DNA of 64,000 nucleotides from Methanocaldococcus sp. 16A (GTDB taxonomy: Archaea > AGJL01 > Methanococci > Methanococcales > Methanocaldococcaceae). Where the stretch lies: the NCBI GenBank assembly GCA_049860595.1, contig CP187551.1, one strand, 5' to 3'. A model generated the notes under the pieces. The model did not search any database and was not told where the DNA came from. It saw nothing but the letters and a program-made list of their open reading frames with translations. A program made the position numbers and the translations under genes. Shown in pieces: positions 23,828 to 50,706 of the stretch (within the stretch, counting starts at the first letter, position 1; each line of letters begins with the position of its first letter).

Positions 23828-23918
23828 AGTCTTTAGCTATTAAAAATTCTATTAGCTAATTTTTTATATATCTTTTTTTAAACTTAGAAAAAAATAAAAT
23901 TTTGTTTGTAGTGATAGT

Positions 23919-24368
23919 ATGATTATTCTTTTGGATTTAAATGGAACAATAGCTACTGATGGGAAGATAAAAGAAGGAGTTAAAGAGAGATTGGCTATTT
24001 TAAAAGAAATATCAGAGATATACATTTTATCAGCTGATACTTTTGGAACTTTAAACGATATTGCAAATGATTTGAATGTTAAAGGAATAAAAATAGATAG
24101 AGAAAAATATGGTAGCGAAAAAATAGCTAAACTAAAAATTTTAGAAGAATTAAAAAAAGAAAATCCAAATAAAAAAATTATTGCTATAGGTAATGGAAAT
24201 AATGATGAATTGTTATTAAAAAATGCTGATTTAGGAATTTGTGTTATTGGTGATGAGGGAGCTTGGAGCAAAACAATATTAAGCTCAGATATTGTCGTTA
24301 AAGACATAATTGATGCCCTTGATTTGGTATTAAAGGAAAATAGGATGAAAGCAACAATTAGGGATTAA
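23919..24368 (+). CDS. HAD-family hydrolase, soluble P-type-ATPase-like
   Basis: DLNGT, LSADTFGT, IGNGNND motifs. Confidence 0.85.
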   Translation: MIILLDLNGTIATDGKIKEGVKERLAILKEISEIYILSADTFGTLNDIANDLNVKGIKIDREKYGSEKIAKLKILEELKKENPNKKIIAIGNGNNDELLLKNADLGICVIGDEGAWSKTILSSDIVVKDIIDALDLVLKENRMKATIRD

Positions 24369-25513
24369 ATTAATATATCAAAAACCTTCTCAGCTGTCTT
24401 AGAAGTTAATTCATAGATTGTTATAGCTACATCAGATATCTGTTTTAAGCTAACTGTTGGTTTTGTGTTTATGCATATAGAGTAAATTTTTATCTTTCTT
24501 TTCATCTTTTCTTCCCTAATTTTTTCTAAAAACTCTAAAGATATTTCGCACTCTCCATCTGTAATAAAAACAATATCACCATTAAATTTTAATGCCTCTC
24601 TCAATGGTTTTTCAAAATTAGTTCCACCACCATAAAATACAGAGGCAAATTCTAAAATTTCTTCAAAAGATACCTTTTTTTCATAAATCTTTATATCCCT
24701 AACACCATCGTCAAATAATATTGCTATATATCTCTTGTTTCTTTTTAAAGATATATCCATTAAGCAGAGAGCAATAGTCTTTGCCCAAATTTCTTTGTTC
24801 CCTCTCATAGAGCCACTTAAATCTAAACAAACTATGAAATCTCCACAGTTTTCATTATTTTCTAATATCTTATAATTTAAAAGTCTATTTTCATTGTATC
24901 TCCTTAACAAATCAATAAAAAGGGTTTCTTCAGCAAAGTTTCTATACTCTGAAGGGAGCAGATTTACCAAATTATTTCCAAAGTTTATTGAGTATTTTTC
25001 TCCTGAGAAGTGTTTAATTTTTGTTTTATACTTCTTTATGGTAATTCTTCTAAACTTCCCTAAAACTTTTACAAATTCTTTGAGTTTGTTGTTTTTTAAA
25101 AGCTTTTCAGTCAATTCTAATTTTTTCTTTGGGTCAGAATGGCTTTTATATCCTTTTCCTTGACCACAAGAGCTGAAAGATGATGTTATACTTTCCATAT
25201 AGCTTTCAAGCTCATCTAACAACTCATCTATATCTTCCTCTTTACATTTATCTTTAAATTCTTTAAATTTCTCACAAAAAAATTCAGTGGCAATTAATGA
25301 ATAATTTTCATCTAATGTAGTTATGGATTTTATATTTTTAAATCTTCTATCTCTTACAATTTTTTTAATTAAATCATTTTCTTCTAAAATTTCAATTTCA
25401 TATTTAAAGAATAGATAAAATATCATCTCTGTTTCTTTTTCACTTAGATGAAAAGTTATTTTATCTTTACACCTTTCCCAAACCATCTTGTCATACTTAT
25501 CATATCTAATCAT
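24365..25513 (-). CDS. VWA domain protein (ViaA/CoxE-like)
   Basis: LLPSE, MIDAS DLSGSM, GGGTNF, FITDGE. Confidence 0.88.
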   Translation of the reverse strand: MIRYDKYDKMVWERCKDKITFHLSEKETEMIFYLFFKYEIEILEENDLIKKIVRDRRFKNIKSITTLDENYSLIATEFFCEKFKEFKDKCKEEDIDELLDELESYMESITSSFSSCGQGKGYKSHSDPKKKLELTEKLLKNNKLKEFVKVLGKFRRITIKKYKTKIKHFSGEKYSINFGNNLVNLLPSEYRNFAEETLFIDLLRRYNENRLLNYKILENNENCGDFIVCLDLSGSMRGNKEIWAKTIALCLMDISLKRNKRYIAILFDDGVRDIKIYEKKVSFEEILEFASVFYGGGTNFEKPLREALKFNGDIVFITDGECEISLEFLEKIREEKMKRKIKIYSICINTKPTVSLKQISDVAITIYELTSKTAEKVFDILI

Positions 25514-25593
25514 TTTTTCACCATAATACTAAATTTAAAATAAATCATAAAATATATATACTATTTTATATAAAAGTATTACACGGTGAGATT

Positions 25594-25935
25594 GTGGAAG
25601 TAAATCTTCTAAATATATCTATAAAGCCTCCTGTAAAAATCCCTAAGAATAGAACTGTAGAGCTAAATGTTGATTGGGACATTGAGTATAAAAAAATGGA
25701 CGCAAAAAAATTTAATTTTGTGTGTAATATTAAAGCCTATGGGGAGTTTTCTTTTGAAGCTTATATTGAAGGGGAAATAAATACTGAAAAAGATTATGAT
25801 ATCATTCCCGAATCTGTATCAGTAAGTATCATTGAGAATTTAATGAAATCTATTCCTAAGCTAATTGGCTATGCTCAACAATTTAGAATTGAAGAAAATG
25901 TTTTTGTTAATCAGCCCGTATCTTTTGCATCATAA
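25594..25935 (+). CDS. hypothetical protein, possible SecB-like fold
   Basis: GGTGAG RBS and GTG start; alternating beta-strand pattern then amphipathic helix. Confidence 0.7.
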   Translation: MEVNLLNISIKPPVKIPKNRTVELNVDWDIEYKKMDAKKFNFVCNIKAYGEFSFEAYIEGEINTEKDYDIIPESVSVSIIENLMKSIPKLIGYAQQFRIEENVFVNQPVSFAS

Positions 25936-26539
25936 ATACAGCTTTATCTCCAAAGTCTCTTAAAATTAGTGGGATGAACTCATAAATTAATTCTTTGTCA
26001 TATCTATAAAGCTCTTTTATTATATAAAGAGAATATTCATTAAAGTTCTCAAAAAGCTTTAATAGAATAGCCTCTTTATTGTCTGATTTCATTATTAACT
26101 TAACCAATACTTTGGCATAAACTTTGTTGTCTAATTTCTTTATAAGTTTTGGATATGCATAGATTGTTAATTTCGAAGGAATATTTGCTAAAGCTTCAGC
26201 ACTTGCAAATCTAATGCACTCAAACTCACTATCTAAGAGCTTTATTAAGTAAGGAATATAAACATAAACCAAATTTGGATATTTAATGCCAACCTTTTCT
26301 ATAATTTTTATGCAATAATAAATAATTTCTCTATTTTTTGAATCAGAAGTGTATTGAGTTGAGATTATATCCTCAAACCCCCTCTCTTTTGTTGATGTTA
26401 ATAATTCAAATACGTCATCAAGAATATTTAATTCAACCAACTCATCAACATCCATTTTGTATAATTCTTTTAAAACCTTTAATTTCTCCCTGTTTCCATA
26501 GTTTAATTTTAATTTCTTTCTATATTCTTCAGAGTTCAT
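25907..26539 (-). CDS. HEAT-repeat protein
   Basis: IPYLIKLLDSEFECIRFASAEALANI HEAT-like repeat; start overlaps the AAA gene end. Confidence 0.8.
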   Translation of the reverse strand: MNSEEYRKKLKLNYGNREKLKVLKELYKMDVDELVELNILDDVFELLTSTKERGFEDIISTQYTSDSKNREIIYYCIKIIEKVGIKYPNLVYVYIPYLIKLLDSEFECIRFASAEALANIPSKLTIYAYPKLIKKLDNKVYAKVLVKLIMKSDNKEAILLKLFENFNEYSLYIIKELYRYDKELIYEFIPLILRDFGDKAVFMMQKIRAD

Positions 26540-27659
26540 TTAAAATCCCTTCAATATATGTGTTAAAATCATCCGTCTCTTTAATAACTTCATCAATAAA
26601 ATCAGTTTTTCTTTTGTTTATAATAGCTTCATTTCTAATTTTTTTCAACTCCAATCTTATATATGCCATTTTACAAAGGATTTCAATTAATTTGTTGTAA
26701 TCTTTTTTACATTCACCAATTTTCTTAATGTCGATGTATTTAAGTTCATTTTTAAGATTTTTAATTATCTCTGCCTTATCCAACACTTGTTCAGCATATT
26801 TGTTGGTTATATCAAATACTACTCTTGAAACAACCAATATATCATCTACATCCTCCCAAAATATATGCCTCAATATTTCTAAATCTTCAATTTCAGCCTC
26901 TTTTCTTCCATTTAGATAGGCAAAGCATTTAACTGCCTTAACTGATTTTTTAAATCTTCTATCTGAAATATAGATATGATTTTGAGATAACTTCTTCTTT
27001 ATATCAACTAAATATCCAATAATATTTTCTATATCAACCTCATTAGCTTTTTCTTGCATTTTTTTAAGTTCTTTTATAGTTATTGTGGTTTTTGGTTTAT
27101 ACTCTTCATCCAATTTAATGAGTTTTACCAAATTTTCACAGCTTCTAATACCTCTAACCACTTTTCTAAACAAAAATCTATCATAAAAAGCTAAGAGCTC
27201 ATTTTCTTCAGGGAGTTCATTTGAAGCTCCGAACAAGCTAATTAAAGGCACTCTCTCTATTCTATCCCCATTGTGATAAATCCTCTCATTAATTATTGAA
27301 AGCAAAGCGTTTAATATAGAGCTATTAGCTTTAAAAACTTCATCTAAGAATGCAATCTCTGCTGTTGGTAAATAACCAGATGTTTTTCTAACAAACCTAT
27401 CATTGTCTTTTAACTCTTTGATACTTAAAGGGCCAAATAACTCATCTTCGGTTGTAAATCTTGTTATAAGTTTTTCGAAATAATTGGCATTAATATGTGA
27501 GGCTATAGCCCTAATTAATTGTGATTTTGCAACTCCTGGATTTCCTAAAAAGACTGTATGTTCATTAGCTAAAATTGATGTCAATGCAATATCTATTTCT
27601 TCCCTCCTCTCTAAAAAATAAGAATTTAACTCTTCTCTTATTTTTTCAAGTTTATGCAT
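26529..27659 (-). CDS. MoxR-family AAA+ ATPase, RavA-like
   Basis: Walker A GNPGVAKS, ELFGP, Walker B AFLDEVFKA, ASNELP, AFYDRF, ISDRR. Confidence 0.92.
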   Translation of the reverse strand: MHKLEKIREELNSYFLERREEIDIALTSILANEHTVFLGNPGVAKSQLIRAIASHINANYFEKLITRFTTEDELFGPLSIKELKDNDRFVRKTSGYLPTAEIAFLDEVFKANSSILNALLSIINERIYHNGDRIERVPLISLFGASNELPEENELLAFYDRFLFRKVVRGIRSCENLVKLIKLDEEYKPKTTITIKELKKMQEKANEVDIENIIGYLVDIKKKLSQNHIYISDRRFKKSVKAVKCFAYLNGRKEAEIEDLEILRHIFWEDVDDILVVSRVVFDITNKYAEQVLDKAEIIKNLKNELKYIDIKKIGECKKDYNKLIEILCKMAYIRLELKKIRNEAIINKRKTDFIDEVIKETDDFNTYIEGILNEL

Positions 27660-27668
27660 GATTTCACT

Positions 27669-28049
27669 CTAAATGCTAATTGTAGTTAGTTGAGCTAGTT
27701 CAACATTACTAATTCCTTTTAGTTTATTTACTAATTCTATTATTCTATTTCTTTGCCCTTTAATTGCTATTTTCCTAATAATTTTTCCTTCAAATGGAAT
27801 TTCGAGGGATACTATTACAATATCTCTATAATAGCTCTCTAACTCAATAATATCCTCAACAGCCTTTGAATTATATATAACAGTTATTTCTCCAATTTTT
27901 GATTCAATCCTACTAAGCCAGTCATATTTTTTTACATAATACTCTAAAGCTCTTCTTATAAATTCTGAACGAGATATTTTTTCCTTATTTATAATTTCAT
28001 CAACTTCTTTCAGTAGATTTTTTTCAATGGTTAATGAAATTCGTTCCAT
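27669..28049 (-). CDS. NikR/CopG-family ribbon-helix-helix regulator with ACT-like C-domain
   Basis: MERISLTI...SRSEFIRRAL RHH motif; G.ITVIY and KG..I..L..KL pattern of the NikR C-domain. Confidence 0.88.
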   Translation of the reverse strand: MERISLTIEKNLLKEVDEIINKEKISRSEFIRRALEYYVKKYDWLSRIESKIGEITVIYNSKAVEDIIELESYYRDIVIVSLEIPFEGKIIRKIAIKGQRNRIIELVNKLKGISNVELAQLTTISI

Positions 28050-28229
28050 AATATCACTTTTGTAATACTTATTTACAGGATAGTATTAAAAGATGTATAA
28101 TATAAAAATATTACTATTAAAAATTAAGAATTAAAATATATAAAAATTAATATATATTCAAGTATTTGTTTTTAATAGTGTTTTTATGAATATTTTAATT
28201 TAAGATATAACTTCATATTAAAAACCAAA

Positions 28230-28245
28230 CCGAAAATATTATATA
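28230..28245 (+). promoter_or_regulatory. BRE-TATA promoter of candidate sRNA
   Basis: CCGAAAATATTATATA, same form as the tRNA and histone promoters in this window. Confidence 0.75.
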
Positions 28246-28266
28246 TGATGAATTTTGTCATATAAC

Positions 28267-28357
28267 GTATGCCATAGGAATCACTCCCACACAAATTTAG
28301 CAGGTTCAAGGAGGCAAAAGTTCTATGTATATATCGGGCTCACCTCTGTGAGGATTT
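28267..28357 (+). ncRNA. candidate structured small RNA
   Basis: Relatively GC-rich island in an AT-rich spacer directly after a strong promoter; two predicted hairpins; no long ORF. Confidence 0.5.
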
Positions 28358-28361
28358 ATAA

Positions 28362-28440
28362 TGGGGCTTTCACAAGAATTAGTTAAAGAATTTAATGTAC
28401 TTTAGGCTTCTCAATCCTTTGAATAATCTATGAAATCTTT
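28362..28440. repeat. degenerate family A element
   Basis: TGGGGCTTTCACAAGAAT...GAATTTAATGTACTTTAGGCTTCTCAATCC resembles 16751-16845. Confidence 0.5.
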
Positions 28441-28509
28441 TTAATTTTTTAATTTATTTATTTTAATATTATTATTTATATATTTTTTAGTAATTTTTAG
28501 GAAAAAAAT

Positions 28510-28524
28510 AGAAAATTTTATATA
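28510..28524 (+). promoter_or_regulatory. BRE-TATA promoter of MCR II operon
   Basis: AGAAAATTTTATATA about 60 nt upstream of the beta subunit start. Confidence 0.65.
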
Positions 28525-28585
28525 CTCATTACTATTATTTTTTGTAGTCGTAGTATAATATTAACAAAAATGGCTGGTGTTGATA

Positions 28586-29929
28586 ATGCTACATTATGAA
28601 GATAAAATAGATTTATATGATGAAAGAGGGAAGTTATTAGAGGAAAATGTTCCATTAGAAGCGATAAGTCCGTTAAAAAACCCAACAATTGAGAAGATAG
28701 TTAATGACATTAAGAGGAGTGTTGCTATAAACTTGGCAGGAATAGAAAATGCTTTAAGAACTGGAGCTATTGGGGGTAAGGCATGTTTCTGTCCTGGTAG
28801 AGAGTTGGATTTACCAATTGTAGAAAATGCAGAAATTATTGCTGAAAAAATAAAAAGAATAGTTCAAATTGATGAAGATGATGATACTGTTGTTAAGTTA
28901 ATCAACGGAGGTAAGCAGATACTCTTACAGTTGCCATCAAAAAGATTGAGAGTAGCTGCTGACTATACCGTTTCAGCACTAATTGGAGGAGGAGCAACAG
29001 TCCAAGCAATTGTTGATACTTTTGAAGTAGATATGTTCGATGCTCCAGTAGTTAAAACAGCAGTTATGGGAAGATATCCACAAACAGTTGATTTTCATGG
29101 GGCTAATATTGCTACTTTATTAGGGCCACCAGTTTTATTAGAAGGATTAGGTTATGGATTGAGAAATATTATGGCAAACCACATTGTAGCAGTTACAAGG
29201 AAAAAGACATTAAATGCTGTTGCTTTAGCGTCAATATTAGAGCAGACAGCAATGTTTGAAACTGGAGATGCTTTAGGGGCATTTGAGAGATTGCACTTAT
29301 TAGGATTAGCTTTCCAGGGATTAAATGCCAACAATTTAACTTATGAACTTGTAAAACAGAATGGGAAAAATGGAACTGTTGGAACTGTGGTAGCTTCAGT
29401 AGTTGAGAGAGCTTTAGAGGATGGAGTTATAAGACCTTTAAAAACTATGCCTTCTGGATACACAGTTTATGAACCAGTTGATTGGGCTTTATGGAATGCC
29501 TATGCTGCATCAGGTTTAGTTGCTGCGGTTATCGTTAATGTAGGTGCAGCAAGAGCTGCTCAAGGTGTAGCATCAACTGTCCTTTACTACAACGATATCT
29601 TAGAATATGAAACTGGTTTGCCAAGCGTTGATTTTGGAAGAGCAGAGGGAACAGCTGTTGGATTCTCATTCTTTAGTCACTCAATCTATGGTGGAGGAGG
29701 ACCTGGAACATTCCACGGAAACCACGTTGTTACAAGACACTCAAAAGGATTTGCTATCCCATGTGCTGCAGCTGCAATGTGTTTAGATGCTGGAACTCAA
29801 ATGTTCTCAGTTGAGAGAACTTCAGCGTTAGTAGGAACTGTCTATAGTGCTATTGACCACTTAAGAGAGCCGTTAAAATATGTTGCTGAGGGAGCTATGG
29901 AGATAAAAGAAAAAGAAAAAGTTATCTAA
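28586..29929 (+). CDS. mcrB: methyl-coenzyme M reductase II beta subunit (mrtB)
   Basis: [30 protein letters not shown]. Confidence 0.97.
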
Positions 29930-29940
29930 ATGGTGATTAG

Positions 29941-30741
29941 ATGGCATACAAACCACAATTTTATCCTGGAAATACAATAATTGCTGAAAATAGAAGAAAG
30001 CATATGAATCCTGATGTTGAGTTAAAGAAATTGAGAGATATTCCAGATGATGGAATAGTTAAGATATTAGGGCATAGAAACCCCGGTGAAAGCTATAAGA
30101 CAGTTCATCCACCATTAGAAGAGATGGACTTTGAAGAGGACCCAATTAAAGAGATTGTTGAACCAATTCAAGGAGCTAAGGAGGGAGTTAGAGTTAGATA
30201 CATTCAGTTTGCTGATTCTATGTATAACGCCCCGGCTCAACCTTATGATAGAGCAAGAACATATATGTGGAGATTTAGAGGGATTGATACAGGGACATTA
30301 TCTGGTAGGCAAGTCATTGAGATGAGAGAGCTTGACTTAGAAAAAATCTCAAAAAACTTTTTAATTGATACAGAATTCTTTGACCCAGCGACCTGTGGAA
30401 TTAGAGGAGCAACTGTCCATGGACACTCATTGAGGTTAGATGAGAATGGTTTAATGTTTGATGGTTTGCAGAGATACATCTATGATGAAAAGACTGGACA
30501 TGTTTTGTATGTTAAAGACCAGGTTGGAAGACCATTAGATGAGCCAGTAGATGTTGGAGAACCGTTACCACAAGATTATTTGGCAAAAATAACAACAATT
30601 TACAGAAAAGACAACATTGGAATGAGAGAAGATAAAGAGGCATTAGAAGTTGTTCAAATAATCCATGAGGCAAGAACAAAAGGAGGATTTGGTTTGGAAG
30701 TATTTAAAAAAGATTTGAAAAAGAGATTAGGTGAAGAATAA
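29941..30741 (+). CDS. mcrG: methyl-coenzyme M reductase II gamma subunit (mrtG)
   Basis: [30 protein letters not shown]. Confidence 0.97.
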
Positions 30742-32399
30742 TGGATGTTGAGAAAAAACTCTTTCTAAAGGCATTAAAGGAGAAGTTTGAAGAAGACCCA
30801 AAAGAAAAATACACTAAATTTTATATATTTGGAGGATGGAGACAATCAGCAAGGAAAAGAGAGTTTGTTGAATTTGCTCAAAAGTTAATTGAGAAAAGAG
30901 GAGGAATTCCATTCTACAACCCAGATATTGGGGTTCCATTAGGGCAGAGAAAGTTGATGACATACAAGATATCAGGAACTGATGCTTTTGTTGAAGGGGA
31001 TGACTTACATTTCTGTAACAACGCAGCAATACAACAGTTAGTTGATGATATTAAAAGAACAGTTATTGTTGGTATGGACACAGCCCACGCTGTTCTCGAA
31101 AAAAGATTAGGTGTAGAGGTTACCCCAGAGACAATTAACGAATACATGGAGACTATTAACCACGCTTTACCAGGAGGGGCTGTTGTCCAAGAGCACATGG
31201 TTGAGGTCCATCCTGGTTTAGTTTGGGATTGTTATGCCAAGATATTTACAGGAAATGATGAATTGGCTGATGAGATTGATAAAAGGTTTTTAATTGACAT
31301 AAATAAAGAATTCCCTGAAGAACAGGCAGAGATGTTAAAGAAATACATTGGAAATAGAACATATCAAGTAAGTAGAGTTCCTACAATAGTTGTTAGATGC
31401 TGTGATGGAGGGACTGTTGCAAGATGGAGTGCTATGCAGATAGGTATGAGTTTCATTACTGCCTATAAATTATGTGCTGGAGAGGCTGCTATCGCTGATT
31501 TCTCTTATGCAGCTAAGCACGCTGATGTTATCCAAATGGGAACAATATTGCCAGCAAGAAGAGCAAGAGGGCCAAATGAGCCGGGAGGAGTTCCATTTGG
31601 AATATTCGCTGATATAATACAAACATCAAGGGTTAGTGATGACCCAGCTCAAGTGACATTAGAGGTTATTGGTGCAGCAGCAACATTCTATGACCAAGTT
31701 TGGTTAGGAAGCTACATGTCTGGAGGAGTAGGATTCACTCAATATGCATCAGCAACATACACAGATGATATCTTAGACGATTTCGTTTATTATGGATTAG
31801 ACTATGTTGAAAAGAAGTATGGATTGTGTGGGGTAAAGCCAAGTATGGATGTTGTTAAGGATATAGCGACAGAAGTAACTTTATACGGTTTAGAACAGTA
31901 TGATGAGTATCCTGCCTTATTAGAAGACCACTTTGGTGGCTCTCAAAGAGCAGGAGTTACAGCAGCTGCAGCTGGATGTTCAGTAGCTTTTGCTACAGGA
32001 AACTCAAACGCTGGAATTAACGGATGGTACTTAAGCCAAATAATGCATAAAGAATACCACAGCAGATTAGGATTCTATGGTTATGATTTACAAGACCAGT
32101 GTGGAGCTGCTAATTCCCTATCAATTAGAAGCGATGAAGGTCTATTGCACGAATGTAGAGGACCTAACTATCCAAACTACGCAATGAACGTTGGGCATCA
32201 GCCAGAGTATGCAGGAATTGCTCAAGCTCCTCATGCGGCAAGAGGAGATGCGTTCTGTCTAAACCCAATAATTAAAGTAGCATTTGCAGATGACAACTTA
32301 ATATTTGACTTCAAATGGCCGAGAAAATGTATAGCTAAGGGAGCATTAAGAGAATTTGAGCCAGCTGGAGAGAGAGACTTAATTATTCCAGCGGCATAA
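30741..32399 (+). CDS. mcrA: methyl-coenzyme M reductase II alpha subunit (mrtA)
   Basis: [40 protein letters not shown]; operon lacks C and D genes. Confidence 0.98.
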
Positions 32400-32473: not shown

Positions 32474-32692
32474 ATGAATTTTGGAGTTGTTGAATTTAAA
32501 GGGCATATAATAGATTCAAACATTTTATCAAAAGTTTTATATAAAATAATATCTATGATAGGGAATTTTAAGATAGAGAAACTTGAAGTAGGAAAAACAA
32601 ATGAAAATAAAAGCTATGCAAGAATCTTAGTTAAAGGAAAGGATGATTTGCCACTATGGATATTGAATATGCTATTAGAAAAATATAAATAA
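32474..32692 (+). CDS. stand-alone N-terminal domain of TIGR00300 (LOR/SDH-like) family; possible gene fragment
   Basis: EFKGHIIDSNILSKV...GNFKIEKLEVGK...SYARILV matches the family N-terminus; GAGGT RBS. Confidence 0.7.
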   Translation: MNFGVVEFKGHIIDSNILSKVLYKIISMIGNFKIEKLEVGKTNENKSYARILVKGKDDLPLWILNMLLEKYK

Positions 32693-32738: not shown

Positions 32739-33482
32739 ATGAAAATCTCTATATGTGGAAAGGGAGGTTGTGGAAAAAGCTCAATAACAACTTTAATTGC
32801 TAAGGAATTTGCTAAAAATGGTTATAGAGTTTTGGTTATTGATGGAGATGAATCAAACTTAAGTTTGCATAAATTATTAGGAATGGATTTACCAAAGGAC
32901 TTTATAAATTATCTTGGAGGAAGAAAGGAGTTTATGCAAAAGTTAAAATCACAACCTAAAAAGAACGTTAAGTTATTTGAAGAACTGTCAATAGATTCCT
33001 TACCAAAAGATTATATTGTGGAAAAAGATAATATCAAGCTCTTAGCAATTGGAAAAATCCATGATTTTGGAGAAGGTTGTGCATGTCCAATGGGTGTTTT
33101 ATTGAGAGAGTTTTTAAAATCTTTAAAATTAAAAGATAAAGAGGTTGTTATTGTAGATACTGAGGCTGGAATTGAGCATTTTGGTAGGGGTGTTGAAGGA
33201 GGATGTGATGTTATTATTGCTATAGTTGACCCAACATATGAATCTATAAGATTATCTCAAAAGATTGAAGAAATTGGAGAAAAATTAGGCAAAAAGGTTT
33301 ATTTTATAGTTAATAAGGTAGATGATGATACAAAGGAATTGGTTCTTGAAAATATTAACAAAGATAAAATTATTGCAGTAATTCCAAATAATAAAGAGAT
33401 TATGAAATATGGATTAAAAGGAGAAGAATTAAATGTTAAAATACCTGAAATTAAAGAAGTCGTGAAATTTTTAACTAAATAA
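32739..33482 (+). CDS. cooC: CooC-family nickel-insertion ATPase
   Basis: GKGGCGKS, EGCACP (CxC), DTEAGIEHFGRG. Confidence 0.9.
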   Translation: MKISICGKGGCGKSSITTLIAKEFAKNGYRVLVIDGDESNLSLHKLLGMDLPKDFINYLGGRKEFMQKLKSQPKKNVKLFEELSIDSLPKDYIVEKDNIKLLAIGKIHDFGEGCACPMGVLLREFLKSLKLKDKEVVIVDTEAGIEHFGRGVEGGCDVIIAIVDPTYESIRLSQKIEEIGEKLGKKVYFIVNKVDDDTKELVLENINKDKIIAVIPNNKEIMKYGLKGEELNVKIPEIKEVVKFLTK

Positions 33483-33616: not shown

Positions 33617-34747
33617 ATGCTAAAAAAACTAATAGGTTTATTAACAATTCTAATTGTAGCTGTAGGGTTTTGTGGATGTATGGAGCAAAATACTGGAGAA
33701 AAGCAAACTCCAGCTGTAAATGAAGATACTGGAAAGATAAAGATAGTTGATGCTATTGGTAGGGAGGTTAAGATTCCAAAGGAAGTTAATAGAATAATCT
33801 GCTCTGGCCCAGGATGCTTAAGATTAATTGTTTATCTAAATGCAACAGACAAAGTTGTGGGAATTGAGGGCTTTGAAAAGAAAAAAAGCACAGGAAGGCC
33901 TTATATAATAGCACATCCAGAACTTTTAAATCTTCCAGTAATTGGAAATGGAGGACCTGGAGATATAGGTAAAGGGCCTAATTTAGAGCAAACTTTGAAA
34001 GTTCAGCCAGATGTAATATTTGTAACATATATAACTAAAGAAAAAGCAGATGAAATTCAACAAAAAACAGGAATTCCAGTAGTCGTTTTAAGCTACGGAA
34101 AGTTAGCAACATTCAATAATGAAGATATCTTTAATTCTTTAAGGATTGCTGGAAAGATTTTAGGAAAAGAAGAAAGAGCTGAAGAAGTTATTAAATTTAT
34201 AAAAGATTGTGAAAATGATTTAAAAAATAGAACAAAAGATATTCCAGACGATAAAAAACCAACTGTATATGTTGGGGGAATTGGATTTAAAGGAATGCAT
34301 GGAATTGATAGTACTCAATGCAAATACCCACCATTTGAAGCAGTTAATGCAAAAAACGTTGCTGATGAGTTAAATAAAGAGGGGCATGTATTTGTTAATA
34401 AAGAACAAATCCTAAAATGGAATCCAGATGTTATATTCATTGATGAAGGTGGCTTAAAGTTAGTTATTGAAGATTATAAAAAGAATCCAGAGTTTTACAA
34501 CTCGTTAAAAGCATTTAAAAATGGAAATGTTTATGGATTGTTGCCTTACAACTTCTATACAACAAACATTGGAACAGCCCTTGCTGATGCTTACTATATA
34601 GGAAAAGTTCTTTATCCAGAGCAGTTTATGGATATAAACCCAGAAAAAAAGGCAGATGAAATTTACACTTTCTTAGTTGGTAAGCCAGTTTATGAAGAAA
34701 TGAAGAAGCAATTTGGTGGATTTAAGAAGTTAGAGTTCAGCAGTTAA
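33617..34747 (+). CDS. ABC transporter substrate-binding lipoprotein (FecB/BtuF family)
   Basis: Signal peptide with GC lipobox; [28 protein letters not shown]. Confidence 0.9.
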
Positions 34748-34842
34748 ATAATACCCTTTTTAATTTTAATTTTTAACTAATAACAACCATCTATTTTTAA
34801 ATTTTAGAGTATATTGTTATGAAAATTTAAAGATGTGATATT

Positions 34843-35889
34843 ATGGACATTCCGCAAAAATATAGACAATATACAAAAAAGAAGATAACTTTTGGGATTA
34901 TATTATTAATAATTTTATTTATAAGTGCAATCTATGCTTTATGTGTAGGGGATTACAAATTAACTGTTAATCAGGTTGTAAATGCTCTGATAGGTTATGA
35001 AAATAGTAATATAAATTTAGTTATTTGGAATATACGATTACCAAGAATTTTTGCCGCAATAATTGCTGGAGCATCTTTGGCTGTTGCTGGTGCAGTTATG
35101 CAGTGCATTTTAAGAAATCCATTAGCAAGTCCATTTACTATGGGAATTTCTCATGGAGCAATGTTTGGTGCATCTCTTGCTATAATTTTATTTGGATTAG
35201 GGGGAGCTGAGAGCTCTGGAAAGATATTTATAAACAATCCATACATGATAACAGTTTTTGCATTCTTGGGAGCTTTAATAGGAGTTGTTGTAATATTATT
35301 ACTTGCAAAGTTAAGGGGATTAACGCCTGAAGCAATGATTTTGGCAGGAGTGGCAATGAGTTCATTATTTACAGCTGGAACTATGCTTATACAGTACTTT
35401 GCAGATGACTTGCAGTTAGCAGCAATGGTTTATTGGACTTTTGGTGATTTAGGCAGACCTCTATGGACAGAGATTTATATTATGTTTGCGGTTATGGTTC
35501 CTTCTTTGATTTATTTCATCCATAAGAGATGGGATTATAATGCATTAGAATGCGGGGAAGAGACGGCAAAATCCTTAGGAGTTAATACAGAAAGAACAAG
35601 ATTAATTGGGATGCTTGTTGCTTCACTTTTAACCTCTGTAGATGTTGCATTTTTGGGAATAATAGGATTTGTTGGTTTGATTTGCCCACATATAGTTAGA
35701 ATTTTTATAGGTGGGGATTACAGGTTTTTAATTCCAATCTCTGCACTATTTGGAGCAGTTTTGTTGTTAATTGCAGATACATTTGCGAGGACAATAATTG
35801 CTCCTATTATCTTACCTGTTGGAATATTAACTTCATTCTTGGGAGCTCCGATGTTTCTCTATTTGTTGCTGAGAATGTATAAGAAATAA
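34843..35889 (+). CDS. FecCD/BtuC family ABC permease
   Basis: [28 protein letters not shown]. Confidence 0.93.
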
Positions 35890-35903
35890 AGATTGGTGAT
35901 TTA

Positions 35904-36659
35904 ATGATTCTCTCTGTTGATGGAGTAGAATTTGCATATAAAAGCAGAAAAATCCTAAACAATATAAAATTTGAGGTTAAAAGAGGAGAGGTAGTCTCTA
36001 TCTTAGGAGTCAATGGAGCTGGAAAATCAACGCTCTTAAAATGCATAAATAAAATTTTAAAACCAAAAAGAGGGACAATATTAATTGATAATTTTGATAT
36101 TAATAAATTAGATAACTATGAATTGGCAAAAAAGGTTGGTTATGTTCCGCAGAGAGCTGAAGGAAACTATATGACGGTATTTGATGCAGTTTTGTTAGGA
36201 AGGAAACCACATATAAAATGGGAAGTATCTGATAGAGATATTGAGATAACTCATAAAGTTTTAAAGCTTTTAAATTTAGAAGATTATGCTTTAAGATACA
36301 CAAATGAGTTGAGTGGTGGAGAACTGCAAAAAGTGATTATAGCGAGAGCTTTAGTACAAGAACCACAAATTTTATTGGTGGATGAGCCAACAAACAATTT
36401 AGATTTAAAAAATCAATTGGAAGTTATGAGAATTATTAGAGATATATCAAAATCTCAAAATATTGCCTCAATTGTAGTTATGCATGATTTAAACTTAGCT
36501 TTAAGATACTCTGATAAGTTTATAATGCTTAAAGATGGAGTTATTTACGCTGAAGGAGATAAAAGCATAATAACTCCTGAAAATATTAAAGCAGTATATG
36601 GAGTTGAAGTTTATATTGAAAATATTAAGGGAATTCCTGTTGTTGTTCCAATAGGATAA
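35904..36659 (+). CDS. ABC transporter ATP-binding protein (FecE/BtuD-like)
   Basis: [24 protein letters not shown]. Confidence 0.94.
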
Positions 36660-40843: not shown

Positions 40844-41764
40844 TTAAGCTTTATTTTTATGCATTTCAAACTCTACTTCTGATTTAGGTTTTATTTTTAT
40901 TAATATATAGTTTTTCATTACACTTCTTTTAATATCTGCTATATCCTCTAACTTATAGTTTTTGACTTTAACTTCTCTAATTTTATCAGCATATTTATCA
41001 TAATCCAATTTAACTCTCAACCCATCTAACTGTGTAACAATAGGCATTGGTGATAATATAGAGAAAACTTCTTCAACCTGCTTTTCAATTTCATCTTTAA
41101 CTACTACTGGTGGAACAATTGGAGGGTCGTAAGATAACTCTCTCCTTCTCTCATTTATAAGTTCTGTTATTACATCAACCATCTTTCTTAAAGCCCTAAT
41201 CTCTTCTCCATGTCTTAACCTATGGCTCCTCCTTCCAAGATTTCCTACATAAGGATAAGGAATATCTATTTTTTCAGGACCTCCAGTAACCACAACTGGA
41301 ATATCTACATCAAATAAATGAGTTTTGTCTTTAATACATGCCTCAAAATTACCCATTACATAAACTGCTAAATCATGCTCCTCTATCAATCTTTTTTCTT
41401 TCTCTCTTAATTGAGATATATCTTTCCCAACACCTCTTGCCAATCCAATCATGTTTGGTTTAGCACCAAATCTCCTTAAATATTCTGAAATATCACACGC
41501 TGTGTGTGGAAGATGATGCCTTGACAAACTTGGGGCTACAACAGCAATCTCTGTCCCCGCTAATGGAGTCTCTATAATCTTACCTTTGTATTTTTTAGCT
41601 TCCTCTTTAATATTTTCAAGTTCATTTTGTGGAATTGCTAAAGTCATATAAACATCCAACTGCATAACGTGCTCTTGTATAACAAACCCCCCAATATCCT
41701 CAATCCATTCTTTGAAGATATTGTTTTTATAAACTCCTCCTTCATATCTAACTATCTCATACAT
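40844..41764 (-). CDS. methanogenesis marker protein 7 (Mmp7)
   Basis: YEGGVYK, PLAGTEIAVV, HHLPHTACDISE, GLARG; ATG after GGTGAT. Confidence 0.9.
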   Translation of the reverse strand: MYEIVRYEGGVYKNNIFKEWIEDIGGFVIQEHVMQLDVYMTLAIPQNELENIKEEAKKYKGKIIETPLAGTEIAVVAPSLSRHHLPHTACDISEYLRRFGAKPNMIGLARGVGKDISQLREKEKRLIEEHDLAVYVMGNFEACIKDKTHLFDVDIPVVVTGGPEKIDIPYPYVGNLGRRSHRLRHGEEIRALRKMVDVITELINERRRELSYDPPIVPPVVVKDEIEKQVEEVFSILSPMPIVTQLDGLRVKLDYDKYADKIREVKVKNYKLEDIADIKRSVMKNYILIKIKPKSEVEFEMHKNKA

Positions 41765-41869
41765 TAAAATCACCAAACTTTCAGGTTTATTAAAAACTTC
41801 ATTAAAAACTATTTTATTATATTCCAACTTTTTATTTTTTACCAACCAAATTTTAAGGAAAACTAACAC

Positions 41870-42262
41870 CTAATCTTTTTTCCTTTCTTCCATAAGAAAC
41901 TTTCTAACTGAATAAGAAACATGGTGAGCTATGTTTATAGCCTCCAACTCTCCTCTTGTCTTTGGAAATATCACATCTTTCTTTAAAATTGCAGATACTA
42001 TATCCTTGGACAAGTTAAAAAACTCCCCTCTTTCACATAAAATGTAATCAAAATCTTCTCCAATCTTTTCAATCAGCTCTTTAACCTCTTTAACAATATC
42101 TCTCAATTTCTGAGTTTTTTCTTCTTTAACCATAATATCTATTTTTTCTACATGTACAATCCTATCCGCATTAATTTCAACTAAAACCCCAGCATAAACC
42201 CTAAAAAACATATCATTTTCATGATGCCTTCCAGATATATCTATTGCCAATACTTTAATCAT
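41870..42262 (-). CDS. DUF2209 family protein
   Basis: IDISGRH, ERGEFFN, IAHHVS. Confidence 0.8.
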   Translation of the reverse strand: MIKVLAIDISGRHHENDMFFRVYAGVLVEINADRIVHVEKIDIMVKEEKTQKLRDIVKEVKELIEKIGEDFDYILCERGEFFNLSKDIVSAILKKDVIFPKTRGELEAINIAHHVSYSVRKFLMEERKKD

Positions 42263-49101: not shown

Positions 49102-50706
49102 TTATTTTTGTCCAAACATTTCTTGTTTCTCCTCCTCAGTTAATAAAGCAACAATCTCTTCTGGCTTACCAACTTTAATTAATTTACCATTTCTCATTAA
49201 ACCTGCTCTATCACAAACATTTAATACAAAATCCATATCGTGTGAAACTATAATATATGTCTGTTCTAATTCTACCCTTGATTTGTGAATTGATTCAGCA
49301 ACTGTATTTCTTGTTATTGGGTCCATTGTTCCAGTTGGCTCATCTAAGATAACAACTCTTGGCTCTTTTATTAAAACTTGTGCTAAAGCACATCTATGCC
49401 TTTCCCCAACACTCAATTCATGAGGATATTTATCCAAAATCTCCTCTGCTTCTTCTTCACTAAAACCTACTGAGGTTAAAGTATAAACTGCCTTCATCCT
49501 TGCAAATTCATCTGGAAGCTCTAAACCTATAGCTTCTGTTAAGTTTTGCAATATGGTTCTATGTGGATAGAGTGCATATTCCTGGAATAATATACCTATA
49601 TATCTCTTAGCTCTACCCCTCCCATTTATTCCAGGTTGTGTCATATCAACCCATTCATCTCCAACTCTAAACCAATACTTCCCCTTAGATGGAGGAAGTA
49701 CTCCTGCTATTATTTTTGATAAAGTGGTTTTTCCAGCTCCACTTACTCCAACCAAACCAAAGATTTCTTTCTCTCTTATATTTAAAGTAACTCCATCAAC
49801 TGCCTTAACAACCCCCCTCTCTACAGAACAATAATGTTTTGAGATATTTTCTAATCTTATTATATCTTCTTTAATTTCAACTTCTGTTTCTGGTTTTTTA
49901 AACTCTTTAACTGTTTCCATGAATTTATTAACAATTTCTTCTGAACTACCTTCCATTATAATTTCTCCTTTCTCTAACCAAATAGCTTTTTCTGTTAGTT
50001 CAGCAATAACCTCCGGCCAGTGAGAGGTTAAGATTAAGCTTATCTTATTTTTAATAACAAGTTCTTTCAAAGCTGAATGCACTAATTTAGCAGTTTGAGG
50101 GTCTAAGGTTCCAGTTGGTTCATCAGCTAAGAATATAAATGGCTCTTTAGCTATTTGTCTTGCTAAAACTACTCTCTGCTTTTCTCCCCCACTTAAATCT
50201 CTTGCTATATGTGTTACTCTATGCTCTAACTTGACCATCTTAATTAGCTCTAATGCCTTATCAATAGCTTCTTTTCCTTCATATCCTGCCTGATGTAAAG
50301 CCTCTAAGATGTTTTCGAGAACTGATTTCTCCCCATATAAAGCGAAGGTTCTCTGAAGCATTATGGCAATTTTTCTTTTTAAATTATAGGTGTATTTTTT
50401 GTCATTCCAAAAATCAACTTCTATTTTTTTAAGCTCTTCTCCACACTTTTTACAAGGAGTTCCTGCCTTTGAAGGAACATCTACATAACCACACTTTTCA
50501 CAATAAGAGACATGATAAATTATTTGCCCCTCAGTAGGTTCATAACCATCCATTCCTCTTAACATGTGTAATAGAACTGATTTCCCAGCTCCACTTTTAC
50601 CCAAAATACCTAATGATTCTCCTTCTTCCAATGTAAATGATATATTCTTCAAAACTACCTTATCTCCAAATTTTTTTGTAACGTTTTTAACTTCCAATAG
50701 TATCAT
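49102..50706 (-). CDS. atwA: methyl-coenzyme M reductase system component A2
   Basis: Two ABC cassettes ([16 protein letters not shown]), CxxC..CxxC insert, [18 protein letters not shown]. Confidence 0.95.

Follow-up and report, generated by a model that had tools for sequence, protein, structure and literature searches.

A gene block beside the operon for methyl-coenzyme M reductase isoenzyme II (MCR II, mrtBGA) in Methanocaldococcus sp. 16A raises two questions, i.e. what kind of machine the block encodes, and on which protein this machine acts. The window, meaning the whole stretch of DNA analyzed, is 64,000 nucleotides (nt) long and corresponds to G000:C1:1440001–1504000, where G000 is the source genome (~30% G+C). 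The block lies at positions 24365–28049 on the minus strand and encodes a NikR-fold regulator, an AAA+ ATPase (AAA_A), a HEAT-repeat protein and a von Willebrand factor type A (VWA) protein (VWA_A). It appears to represent a new three-part variant of the RavA/ViaA-type MoxR-VWA remodellers, and one of two sister systems that share a motor (estimated probability about 0.8). The most likely client is MCR, chiefly isoenzyme II, for which the module would be an accessory and dispensable factor (about 0.4).

MCR is the source of nearly all biological methane. Open questions on this enzyme concern the delivery of the F430 cofactor to the apo-enzyme, the assembly of isoenzyme II and the poor outcome of heterologous expression, and MoxR-VWA systems are themselves widespread and poorly understood. 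The block supplies a three-gene candidate for MCR assembly that lends itself to genetic tests in a tractable hyperthermophile, where a negative outcome would teach as much as a positive one. A search of the literature outside subscription papers and bioRxiv supplements returned no paper for "MoxR" together with "methyl-coenzyme M reductase", and none for MJ0077 to MJ0080. The supplement of PMC6495749 has no rows for MJ_0076 to MJ_0083, and mrt is not mentioned in its main text.

Arrangement of the gene block

A sequence-only reading of this DNA had listed the four genes as a co-oriented set, and all four are confirmed in coordinates, strand and domains. The regulator gene is at positions 27669–28049 (126 amino acids, aa), AAA_A at 26529–27659 (376 aa), the HEAT gene at 25907–26539 (210 aa) and VWA_A at 24365–25513 (382 aa). 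The first three are tightly coupled, as had been described: the gap between the regulator gene and AAA_A is exactly 9 nt, and AAA_A and the HEAT gene overlap by exactly 11 nt. The block is divergent from mrtBGA, which was also correctly described. In six species pairs, the regulator, AAA+ and HEAT genes have ratios of nonsynonymous to synonymous substitution rates (dN/dS) of 0.01–0.12, and the composition of the locus displays no anomaly. The genes are real, and selection at the locus is strongly purifying.

Comparisons within the order were made with 40 Methanococcales genomes, i.e. G000 and the genomes of 39 other species; widening the search to the phylum gave the same 40. In one of these, G010, the whole module is covered by contigs from RNA libraries of three studies, where DNA carry-over is possible, and one raw-read RNA run (X13) gave only 21 partial reads. 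The RNA contigs are taken as presence only. They carry no information on strand, transcript ends or level, and the operon structure is therefore read from gene spacing alone.

A RavA/ViaA-type system with a probable HEAT subunit

AAA_A is a type A MoxR ATPase of the RavA subfamily. Its best Pfam model is bpMoxR (E-value = 8.3e-55, 185.5 bits), and it also displays the AAA_5 (E-value = 3.5e-28) and AAA_lid_8 (E-value = 9.7e-19) domains. E. coli RavA is the best PDB match of the AAA_A family profile, at positions 4–304 (E-value = 4.4e-80). Residues G39, P41, G42, K45 and S46 of the Walker A motif, D106 and E107 of Walker B, and the arginines R234 and R235 are invariant across 25 sequences. AAA_A thus has the AAA_5 core, both Walker motifs, the arginines and the RavA-type lid that characterize the core of the RavA subfamily. 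The earlier assignment to RavA-type ATPases is upheld for this core and lid, and does not hold for the C-terminal part. AAA_A lacks the triple-helix/LARA region, having 376 aa compared with about 498 in RavA, and the match stops at RavA residue 319. The RavA equivalog NF010054 (cut-off 681) gives AAA_A 209.5 bits, with coverage of RavA residues 10–308 of 498.

VWA_A is a predicted type A ViaA-like adaptor. The match to the VWA_2 model (24.8 bits) is below the cut-off of 27, and the VWA fold is assigned from the AlphaFold2 model (mean predicted local distance difference test, pLDDT, 79.4), which shows an N-terminal helical domain and, by Foldseek comparison, a C-terminal VWA fold. The metal ion-dependent adhesion site (MIDAS) residues D231, S233, S235, T298 and D319 do not vary among the 18 A and B proteins aligned. 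VWA_A therefore has what is expected of a ViaA-like partner, i.e. a VWA domain with the complete MIDAS (DxSxS, T and D) encoded with the ATPase, and the intact MIDAS of the earlier description is confirmed. VWA_A also matches the ViaA equivalog NF008230, including part of the region that precedes the VWA domain, with a score (65.1 bits) that is below the cut-off of 500. It is present in the AAA_A locus in 11 of 13 genomes, and is a pseudogene in G006.

The HEAT protein is below the Pfam HEAT_2 cut-off (18.9 bits against 27.7), and its assignment comes from a family profile and a structural model. The AlphaFold2 model is an all-alpha solenoid (pLDDT 86.7), whose top Foldseek matches are designed armadillo repeats (E-value = 3e-4); the protein thus displays the tandem helix-turn-helix repeats of a HEAT/ARM alpha-solenoid. 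A profile built from 13 HEAT orthologues has 358 matches at E ≤ 0.001, mostly long, multi-repeat HEAT proteins that are matched in many stretches. All 19 named homologues are from Methanocaldococcus, Methanotorris or Methanothermococcus, and relatives beyond the Methanococcales are generic repeat matches only. No paralogue of the HEAT protein was found in the source genome. The HEAT gene adjoins AAA_A in all 13 type A loci, including those where VWA_A has moved away.

In complex prediction with AAA_A, VWA_A and HEAT, where HEAT was scored as the partner, the median score is 0.41 (runs 0.52, 0.41 and 0.09) and the best control is 0.01. The score mark used is passed by 116 of 157 solved complexes and by two of 215 mismatches; scores at or below 0.60 that pass the mark come from only 18 of the 157 solved complexes, and include both of the passing mismatches. 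Contact agreement between the HEAT runs is at least 0% and the partner pLDDT at least 74. When VWA_A is replaced and HEAT and AAA_A are kept, the score falls to 0.01; therefore the model puts HEAT on VWA_A. Binding of HEAT to the VWA protein is thus weakly predicted.

The closest known system is RavA-ViaA of E. coli. The likeness consists of the profile match to RavA over the AAA+ core and lid with AAA_lid_8, the match of VWA_A to ViaA, and a two-gene unit in which the motor precedes a MIDAS adaptor. The window system differs in that it has no LARA/triple-helix part and is below both equivalog cut-offs, and in that it is archaeal, has an extra HEAT subunit, and is duplicated with a gene-converted motor. 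Its neighbours, mrt and cbiH, also differ from the E. coli context, which is lysine decarboxylase or respiratory. NorQ/NorD, CbbQ/CbbO and CoxD/CoxE likewise combine a MoxR motor with a VWA/MIDAS adaptor beside operons for metalloenzymes or cofactor enzymes, and the analogy with such pairs that was drawn at the outset is upheld. A chain of the NorQD complex (9qhe_G) is found at rank 42 of the Foldseek matches to the VWA_A model. These pairs are from other MoxR subfamilies, however, and show no sequence-level match to the window proteins. We know of none that has a HEAT third subunit.

The bpMoxR match and the three-component layout also recall the MoxR-vWA-beta-propeller systems, and the block could be read as a conflict or defence system of this kind, or as the remnant of a mobile element, with the ribbon-helix-helix (RHH) protein in an antitoxin-like role. 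The nearest outgroup ATPase-VWA pairs, 45%–50% identical, are on two metagenome contigs (L073 and L077) that are rich in ORFans, carry RNase H genes and have no mcr genes, and relatives that are 32%–35% identical occur in viral contigs. In the window system, however, the third component is a HEAT solenoid. No beta-propeller, effector or VMAP domain was found in the proteins encoded at 17–54 kb of the window, and none of seven proteins matches a PADLOC family. The stable position, strong purifying selection and absence of a composition anomaly likewise argue against this interpretation, which is considered very improbable.

The L073 and L077 outgroup pairs are located among unidirectional ORFans with an RNase H gene, and L073 has in addition a second pair, of AAA_5 and CobT-like VWA proteins. 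These two loci may be parts of a mobile element or virus. A viral origin of the nearest outgroup is not supported, the IMG/VR relatives being only 32%–35% identical.

Two sister systems with a shared motor

The source genome has a second ATPase-VWA pair, AAA_B followed by VWA_B, whose sequences are 69% and 39% identical to AAA_A and VWA_A, respectively. There is no HEAT gene in this pair. It forms an operon, cbiH-AAA_B-VWA_B, at G000:C1:879670–882905 (L062:8168–11406), with AAA_B at G000:C1:881019–882134. The cbiH gene is single-copy, and its product scores 320.9 bits with TIGR01466 (cut-off 246.35). Of the 15 loci that extend upstream of AAA_B, 14 have cbiH immediately before it and only G009 does not. 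The A and B ATPases are sister clades within one branch that is confined to the Methanococcales.

The two halves of the ATPase gene show different histories. Over codons 1–190, A and B of the same genome have 89%–98% DNA identity, with 100% in 30-codon windows, in all nine genomes that have both; orthologues from different species are only 74%–78% identical over the same codons. Over codons 191–376, A and B are 58%–64% identical. A tree of the N-terminal half pairs each A with the B of its own genome and a tree of the C-terminal half splits A from B. Recurrent gene conversion, to which these identities and trees point, keeps the ATPase core uniform. The differences between A and B lie in the lid/C-terminal half and in the VWA and HEAT proteins. 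With motor halves that are nearly identical, these diverged parts are where the specificity for partner and client should reside.

The cbiH neighbour suggests a different reading, that the paralogous machines handle metal-tetrapyrrole cofactors and not finished enzymes, with type B serving the cobamide line, type A the delivery of F430 or nickel, and the HEAT protein as cofactor holder, in the manner of CobS/CobT and BchI/BchD. HEAT-repeat lyases hold bilins. Under this proposal the sister machines would be ATP-driven loaders of both metal-tetrapyrrole cofactors of methanogenesis; type A would load or exchange F430 in MCR II, with HEAT holding the cofactor or the open apo-enzyme, and type B would act for the cobamide line. 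Like the window system, the CobS/CobT and BchI/BchD chelatase motors consist of an AAA+ and a VWA/MIDAS protein, and tetrapyrrole genes recur beside both paralogues: in addition to cbiH in the 14 loci, the type A operon of G019 has cbiE ~1 kb upstream, and cobA is behind the regulator gene in G028 and G019. A CooC-type ATPase with a CXC motif is encoded downstream of mrtA, and the gene for a nickel-pincer-nucleotide-dependent ornithine cyclodeaminase paralogue is directly upstream of AAA_A in G032 and G034. However, each adjacency involves one neighbour only, there are several tetrapyrrole methylase genes per genome, genomes without both modules still need F430 and cobamide, and the regulator has no nickel site. 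There is no CobN/BchH-like large subunit nearby, the window adaptor lacks the AAA+ half of the class I chelatases, and matches to chelatase models are negligible (BchD-ChlD, E-value = 0.0019, 16.9 bits). The cofactor-handling proposal is thus unlikely, in its general form and as paired F430 and cobamide loaders alike. If true, it would represent the first dedicated F430-insertion machinery, and the A and B paralogues would form a natural set of domain swaps from which the determinants of client choice in MoxR systems could be mapped.

Membership in the class I chelatases themselves (CobNST/BchHID) was rejected; neither the window nor the type B locus encodes CobN or BchH, and the BchD and cobaltochelatase models give 14–17 bits.

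Linkage with MCR II and the question of the client

The mrtB (28577–29929), mrtG (29941–30741) and mrtA (30741–32399) genes are on the plus strand, and the products are all over the NCBIfam equivalog cut-offs (TIGR03257, TIGR03259 and TIGR03256, respectively). The absence of C and D genes from this operon, which the sequence-only reading had remarked upon, is confirmed; an orphan mrtD-like gene is found ~230 kb away. A second operon, mcrBDCGA, is at G000:C1:911042–916075, with a 209-aa open reading frame (ORF) between B and G and an McrA that is 85% identical. The window operon thus supplies B, G and A for a second time, lacks mcrC and is distinct from mcrBDCGA, as expected of MCR II. The orthologous mrt operons in G028 and G032 have an MCR_D gene between B and G. 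The GTG listed as the start of mrtB (28577) probably lies too far upstream; the usual start is obtained with an ATG at 28586.

Intact mrtA and a complete module are found together in G000, G001, G010, G014, G015, G019, G023, G032 and G034. G004 has fragments of both. In G006 there are mrtA pseudogenes and a VWA_A pseudogene and the remaining module is intact. G028 has intact mrtA and no module was found there; in G009, G011 and G013 the module is complete and mrtA was not found. G024 has a VWA_A remnant only, also with no mrtA found, and neither was found in 24 genomes, nine of which are under 90% complete. The full module is thus present in nine of the ten Methanococcales genomes that have intact mrtA on adequate contigs. 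Eight of the nine genomes with both have the module 0.9–2.0 kb from mrtB and in divergent orientation, and these eight represent two families. When 17 flank genes were tested between the two families, only the ornithine cyclodeaminase paralogue was also common to them. The linkage of the module with mrt is genuine, and is more than simple synteny.

The G006 locus (L035, G006:C1:387200–407199) shows joint decay. Here mrtB is in four pieces, mrtG in two pieces and mrtA lacks residues 92–272; VWA_A is in three pieces and the cyclodeaminase paralogue is also broken, and 11 neighbouring genes are whole. Pairwise dN/dS of the module is not raised in G006 or in G011 (0.06–0.12), pairwise values being blind to recent relaxation. 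In G009, AAA_A-HEAT ends 14 nt from a convergent gene for the MCR glutamine C-methyltransferase (L037:7505–8824, plus strand; TIGR04014, 649.8 bits). The joint decay in G006, the neighbour in G009, the co-occurrence with intact mrtA and the presence of the module beside mrt in eight genomes of two families stand in favour of the proposal made from sequence alone that MCR II is the client.

A number of observations weigh against that proposal. G009 and G013, which are 99% complete, have one MCR I-type McrA each and an intact module with all motifs, and in both VWA_A is more than 200 kb from AAA_A-HEAT. G011 shows a clean deletion of mrtBGA with the module untouched, which weighs little because the divergence is too recent. 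G028 has mrtBDGA without the type A genes. In G019 the module and mrt are on different contigs, and the 6 kb upstream of AAA_A is free of mrt. Two of the patterns that the sequence-only reading had named as damaging to itself are thus found in part, i.e. the module where MCR II is absent (G009, G013 and G011) and the module unlinked to mrt (G019), to which is added an MCR II genome without the module (G028). A factor dedicated to MCR II would be present with the enzyme and absent without it, and the four genomes G009, G011, G013 and G028 break this pattern. The joint absence from 24 genomes can be the result of one deletion, the genes being neighbours, and the surveyed genomes are kin, such that counts of co-occurrence overstate independence. 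Because neighbours can be lost together and the genomes are kin, the co-occurrence is suggestive and is not statistical proof.

The pattern outside the order points the same way. Among 211 other archaeal genomes, nine have an ATPase homologue at E ≤ 1e-25. None of the seven two-McrA genomes outside the Methanococcales has one at this cut-off, and one McrA copy in such genomes is 84%–86% identical to the window MrtA. The wider ATPase family has 5499 matches at E ≤ 1e-10, mostly in non-methanogens. Further, the purified MCR activation complex of Methanococcus maripaludis is reported to contain McrC, Mmp7, Mmp17, Mmp3, A2 and a DUF2098 protein, and the accessible portion of the report lists no AAA+, VWA or HEAT protein (PMC12176620). 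The module shares its proposed client with McrC, McrD, Mmp7, Mmp17, Mmp3 and A2, and the Mmp7 and A2 genes are in the window; the protein families are unrelated to those of the module.

From these observations, the block may almost as well be thought of as a RavA/ViaA-like chaperone for a client other than MCR, with its position beside mrt reflecting an inherited neighbourhood or shared regulation and no physical relationship between enzyme and chaperone. The intact modules of G009, G013 and G011, the missing module of G028, the absence of a homologue from the seven other two-MCR genomes, the spread of the ATPase family among non-methanogens and the mcr-free ORFan-rich outgroup contigs are all consistent with this, as is the sister paralogue B, which has a quite different neighbour in cbiH. 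Such a chaperone would leave unexplained the retention of mrt as sole neighbour in two families, with the remaining flank genes tested all different, and the selective decay of VWA_A and mrtBGA in G006, and no conserved neighbour points to another client. MCR is tentatively regarded as the best supported among specific clients, and an unrelated client is nearly as likely.

Two other specific clients were weighed. No gene other than the cyclodeaminase paralogue accompanies mrt and the module in both families. This protein is nickel-pincer-nucleotide-dependent, and its full-length form, of 404 aa, scores 503 bits with TIGR00300 (cut-off 410.8). The full-length gene is co-oriented with AAA_A and 43–46 nt upstream of it in G032 and G034, and is downstream of mrtA in G001, and thus this protein, travelling with the cluster, could itself be the client. 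However, the gene is reduced to a 72-aa remnant in the window (32474–32692, plus strand, Saccharop_dh_N) and in G011, is frameshifted in G006, and was not detected in the loci of G010, G014, G015 and G023, where the module is intact. Intact modules under selection already occur in several genomes that have no copy of this paralogue. The cyclodeaminase is therefore a quite improbable client. A second paralogue, 51% identical, is encoded at G000:C1:516380–517576.

The sequence-only reading had also offered thiol:fumarate reductase (TfrAB) as an alternative client, by analogy with ViaA and FrdA. E. coli RavA-ViaA associate with fumarate reductase, according to the accessible part of PMC10585395, and tfrB is 10.8 kb away in the window and 7 kb from AAA_A in G009. 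However, TfrB is present in 40 of 40 Methanococcales genomes compared with 13 for AAA_A-HEAT, tfrB is found in none of the other type A loci, and tfrB and the module are as much as 62 kb (G014), 69 kb (G032), ~330 kb (G023) and ~450 kb (G011) apart. TfrB was rejected as client on this phyletic pattern and these distances, leaving the idea with a very small probability.

Proposed mode of action

If MCR is the client, the module would serve as a non-essential factor in its assembly or repair, and not as a universal requirement. By analogy with RavA, the motor would be an AAA+ hexamer. The ViaA-like adaptor would grip an acidic group on the client through its MIDAS, and the HEAT solenoid is predicted from the complex model to sit on the adaptor as a third subunit. 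ATP hydrolysis would then loosen or reshape the client such that a cofactor or subunit could enter or leave. AAA_A and HEAT would be transcribed behind a regulator that is blind to nickel, with motor and enzyme co-regulated from one divergent region. This co-regulation is proposed because the regulator gene is itself a conserved upstream neighbour of mrt.

The regulator and the divergent control region

The regulator displays the architecture of NikR, i.e. an N-terminal RHH domain (RHH_1, E-value = 6.3e-11, 42.3 bits) and a C-terminal ACT-like domain (NikR_C, E-value = 5.2e-10, 39.9 bits), both over the Pfam cut-offs. The high-affinity nickel site of NikR uses His and Cys ligands. Both His and Cys are missing from the regulator sequence, and the same is true of five of its seven orthologues (six of eight overall). 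It is below the cut-off of all NCBIfam NikR models. At the aligned place, the canonical NikR paralogue of the genome (G000:C1:33880–34317) has HLHLDHDHC. Judging by these residues, the regulator does not sense nickel in the manner of NikR. The earlier description as NikR-like is correct with respect to the fold, and as a label "NikR" is too strong because the protein carries no nickel ligands.

The regulator gene is found upstream of mrt in nine genomes of two genera. In the source genus, AAA_A and HEAT are directly behind it. In G028 and G019 its orthologue is upstream of mrtBDGA, and the ATPase module is absent (G028) or elsewhere (G019). G002, G005 and G012, which have no mrt, also carry regulator paralogues (52%–68% identical). 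The switch between MCR I and MCR II has a candidate regulator in this NikR-fold protein, which is blind to nickel and encoded upstream of mrt.

In G028 and G019 a cobA gene (uroporphyrinogen-III C-methyltransferase) is behind the regulator gene upstream of mrtBDGA (L165:10485–12050 and L058:4469–7170, respectively). A TnpB gene of the IS200/IS605 type is inserted between the regulator gene and cobA in G019.

The control region that separates the regulator gene from mrtB (28050–28576) was analyzed in a seven-genome alignment. It displays a conserved non-coding block of ~60 nt at ~28230–28290, which contains ATGATGA and GTATGCCATAGGAATCACTCCCACA, a conserved hairpin at ~28336–28355, GGCTCACCTCTGTGAGG, and the mrtB TATA region at ~28510–28560. 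The conserved block and hairpin are retained in G011 despite the loss of mrtBGA. The region has no Rfam match at E ≤ 1, none of 22 predicted pairs shows a compensatory change, and the ATGATGA word of the conserved block is not followed by a D box. The block and hairpin may represent a small RNA or a leader. Inverted repeats at 28050–28590 are mostly AT-rich. An operator candidate, ATAGTATTA, has 49 matches in the window when one mismatch is allowed, against 56.3 expected, and with no enrichment no operator is claimed.

orf113 and the position of VWA_A

The spacer between the HEAT gene and VWA_A is 393 nt and holds a small conserved gene on the plus strand, orf113 (25594–25935, 113 aa). It is divergent from VWA_A and convergent with the HEAT gene, and its dN/dS is 0.08–0.20. 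It is found at the same place in eight of the 11 loci that have VWA_A beside AAA_A-HEAT, and in G024 it is still beside the VWA_A remnant. A paralogue is at G000:C1:232951–233247. No family was found for orf113 in Pfam, NCBIfam or PADLOC; Atlas matches are to unnamed clusters at 0.88–0.90 and are a lead only. A 108-aa ORF beside VWA_A of G009 was rejected as a homologue (E-value = 0.082).

Because orf113 is on the opposite strand and lies between the genes, VWA_A is not co-transcribed with AAA_A-HEAT in G000, and in this respect the earlier description, in which VWA_A simply followed the HEAT gene, has to be amended. G014 and G019 have no orf113 and their AAA, HEAT and VWA genes are contiguous, in G019 as one overlapping operon. 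The ancestral unit is thus AAA-HEAT-VWA, and by gene order orf113 interrupts this ancestral operon.

Other genes of the window

A 147-aa ORF on the minus strand at 23864–24307 overlaps a HAD-like gene at 23919–24368 on the plus strand. Its translation is of low complexity and matches no family, and it is therefore probably spurious.

Methanogenesis marker 7 (Mmp7, TIGR03274) is encoded at 40844–41869 on the minus strand, adjacent to a DUF2209 gene at 41870–42262 on the same strand, and MCR component A2 (TIGR03269) at 49102–50706, also on the minus strand. The window is rich in MCR-related genes, since marker 7, the DUF2209 gene and A2 are 13–22 kb from mrt.

The CooC-type P-loop ATPase downstream of mrtA (32739–33482, plus strand, 247 aa) is noted for context. 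Its best PDB match is CooC (3KJE) over residues 1–231 (E-value = 1.4e-26), and it displays a deviant Walker A motif, GKGGCGKS, and a CXC motif, GEGCACP. The gene is beside the module in six genomes of the genus, and a 57% identical orthologue is beside the type B module of G002. In the window it is followed by genes for an ABC importer (binding protein, FecCD and ATPase) at 33617–36659 on the plus strand.

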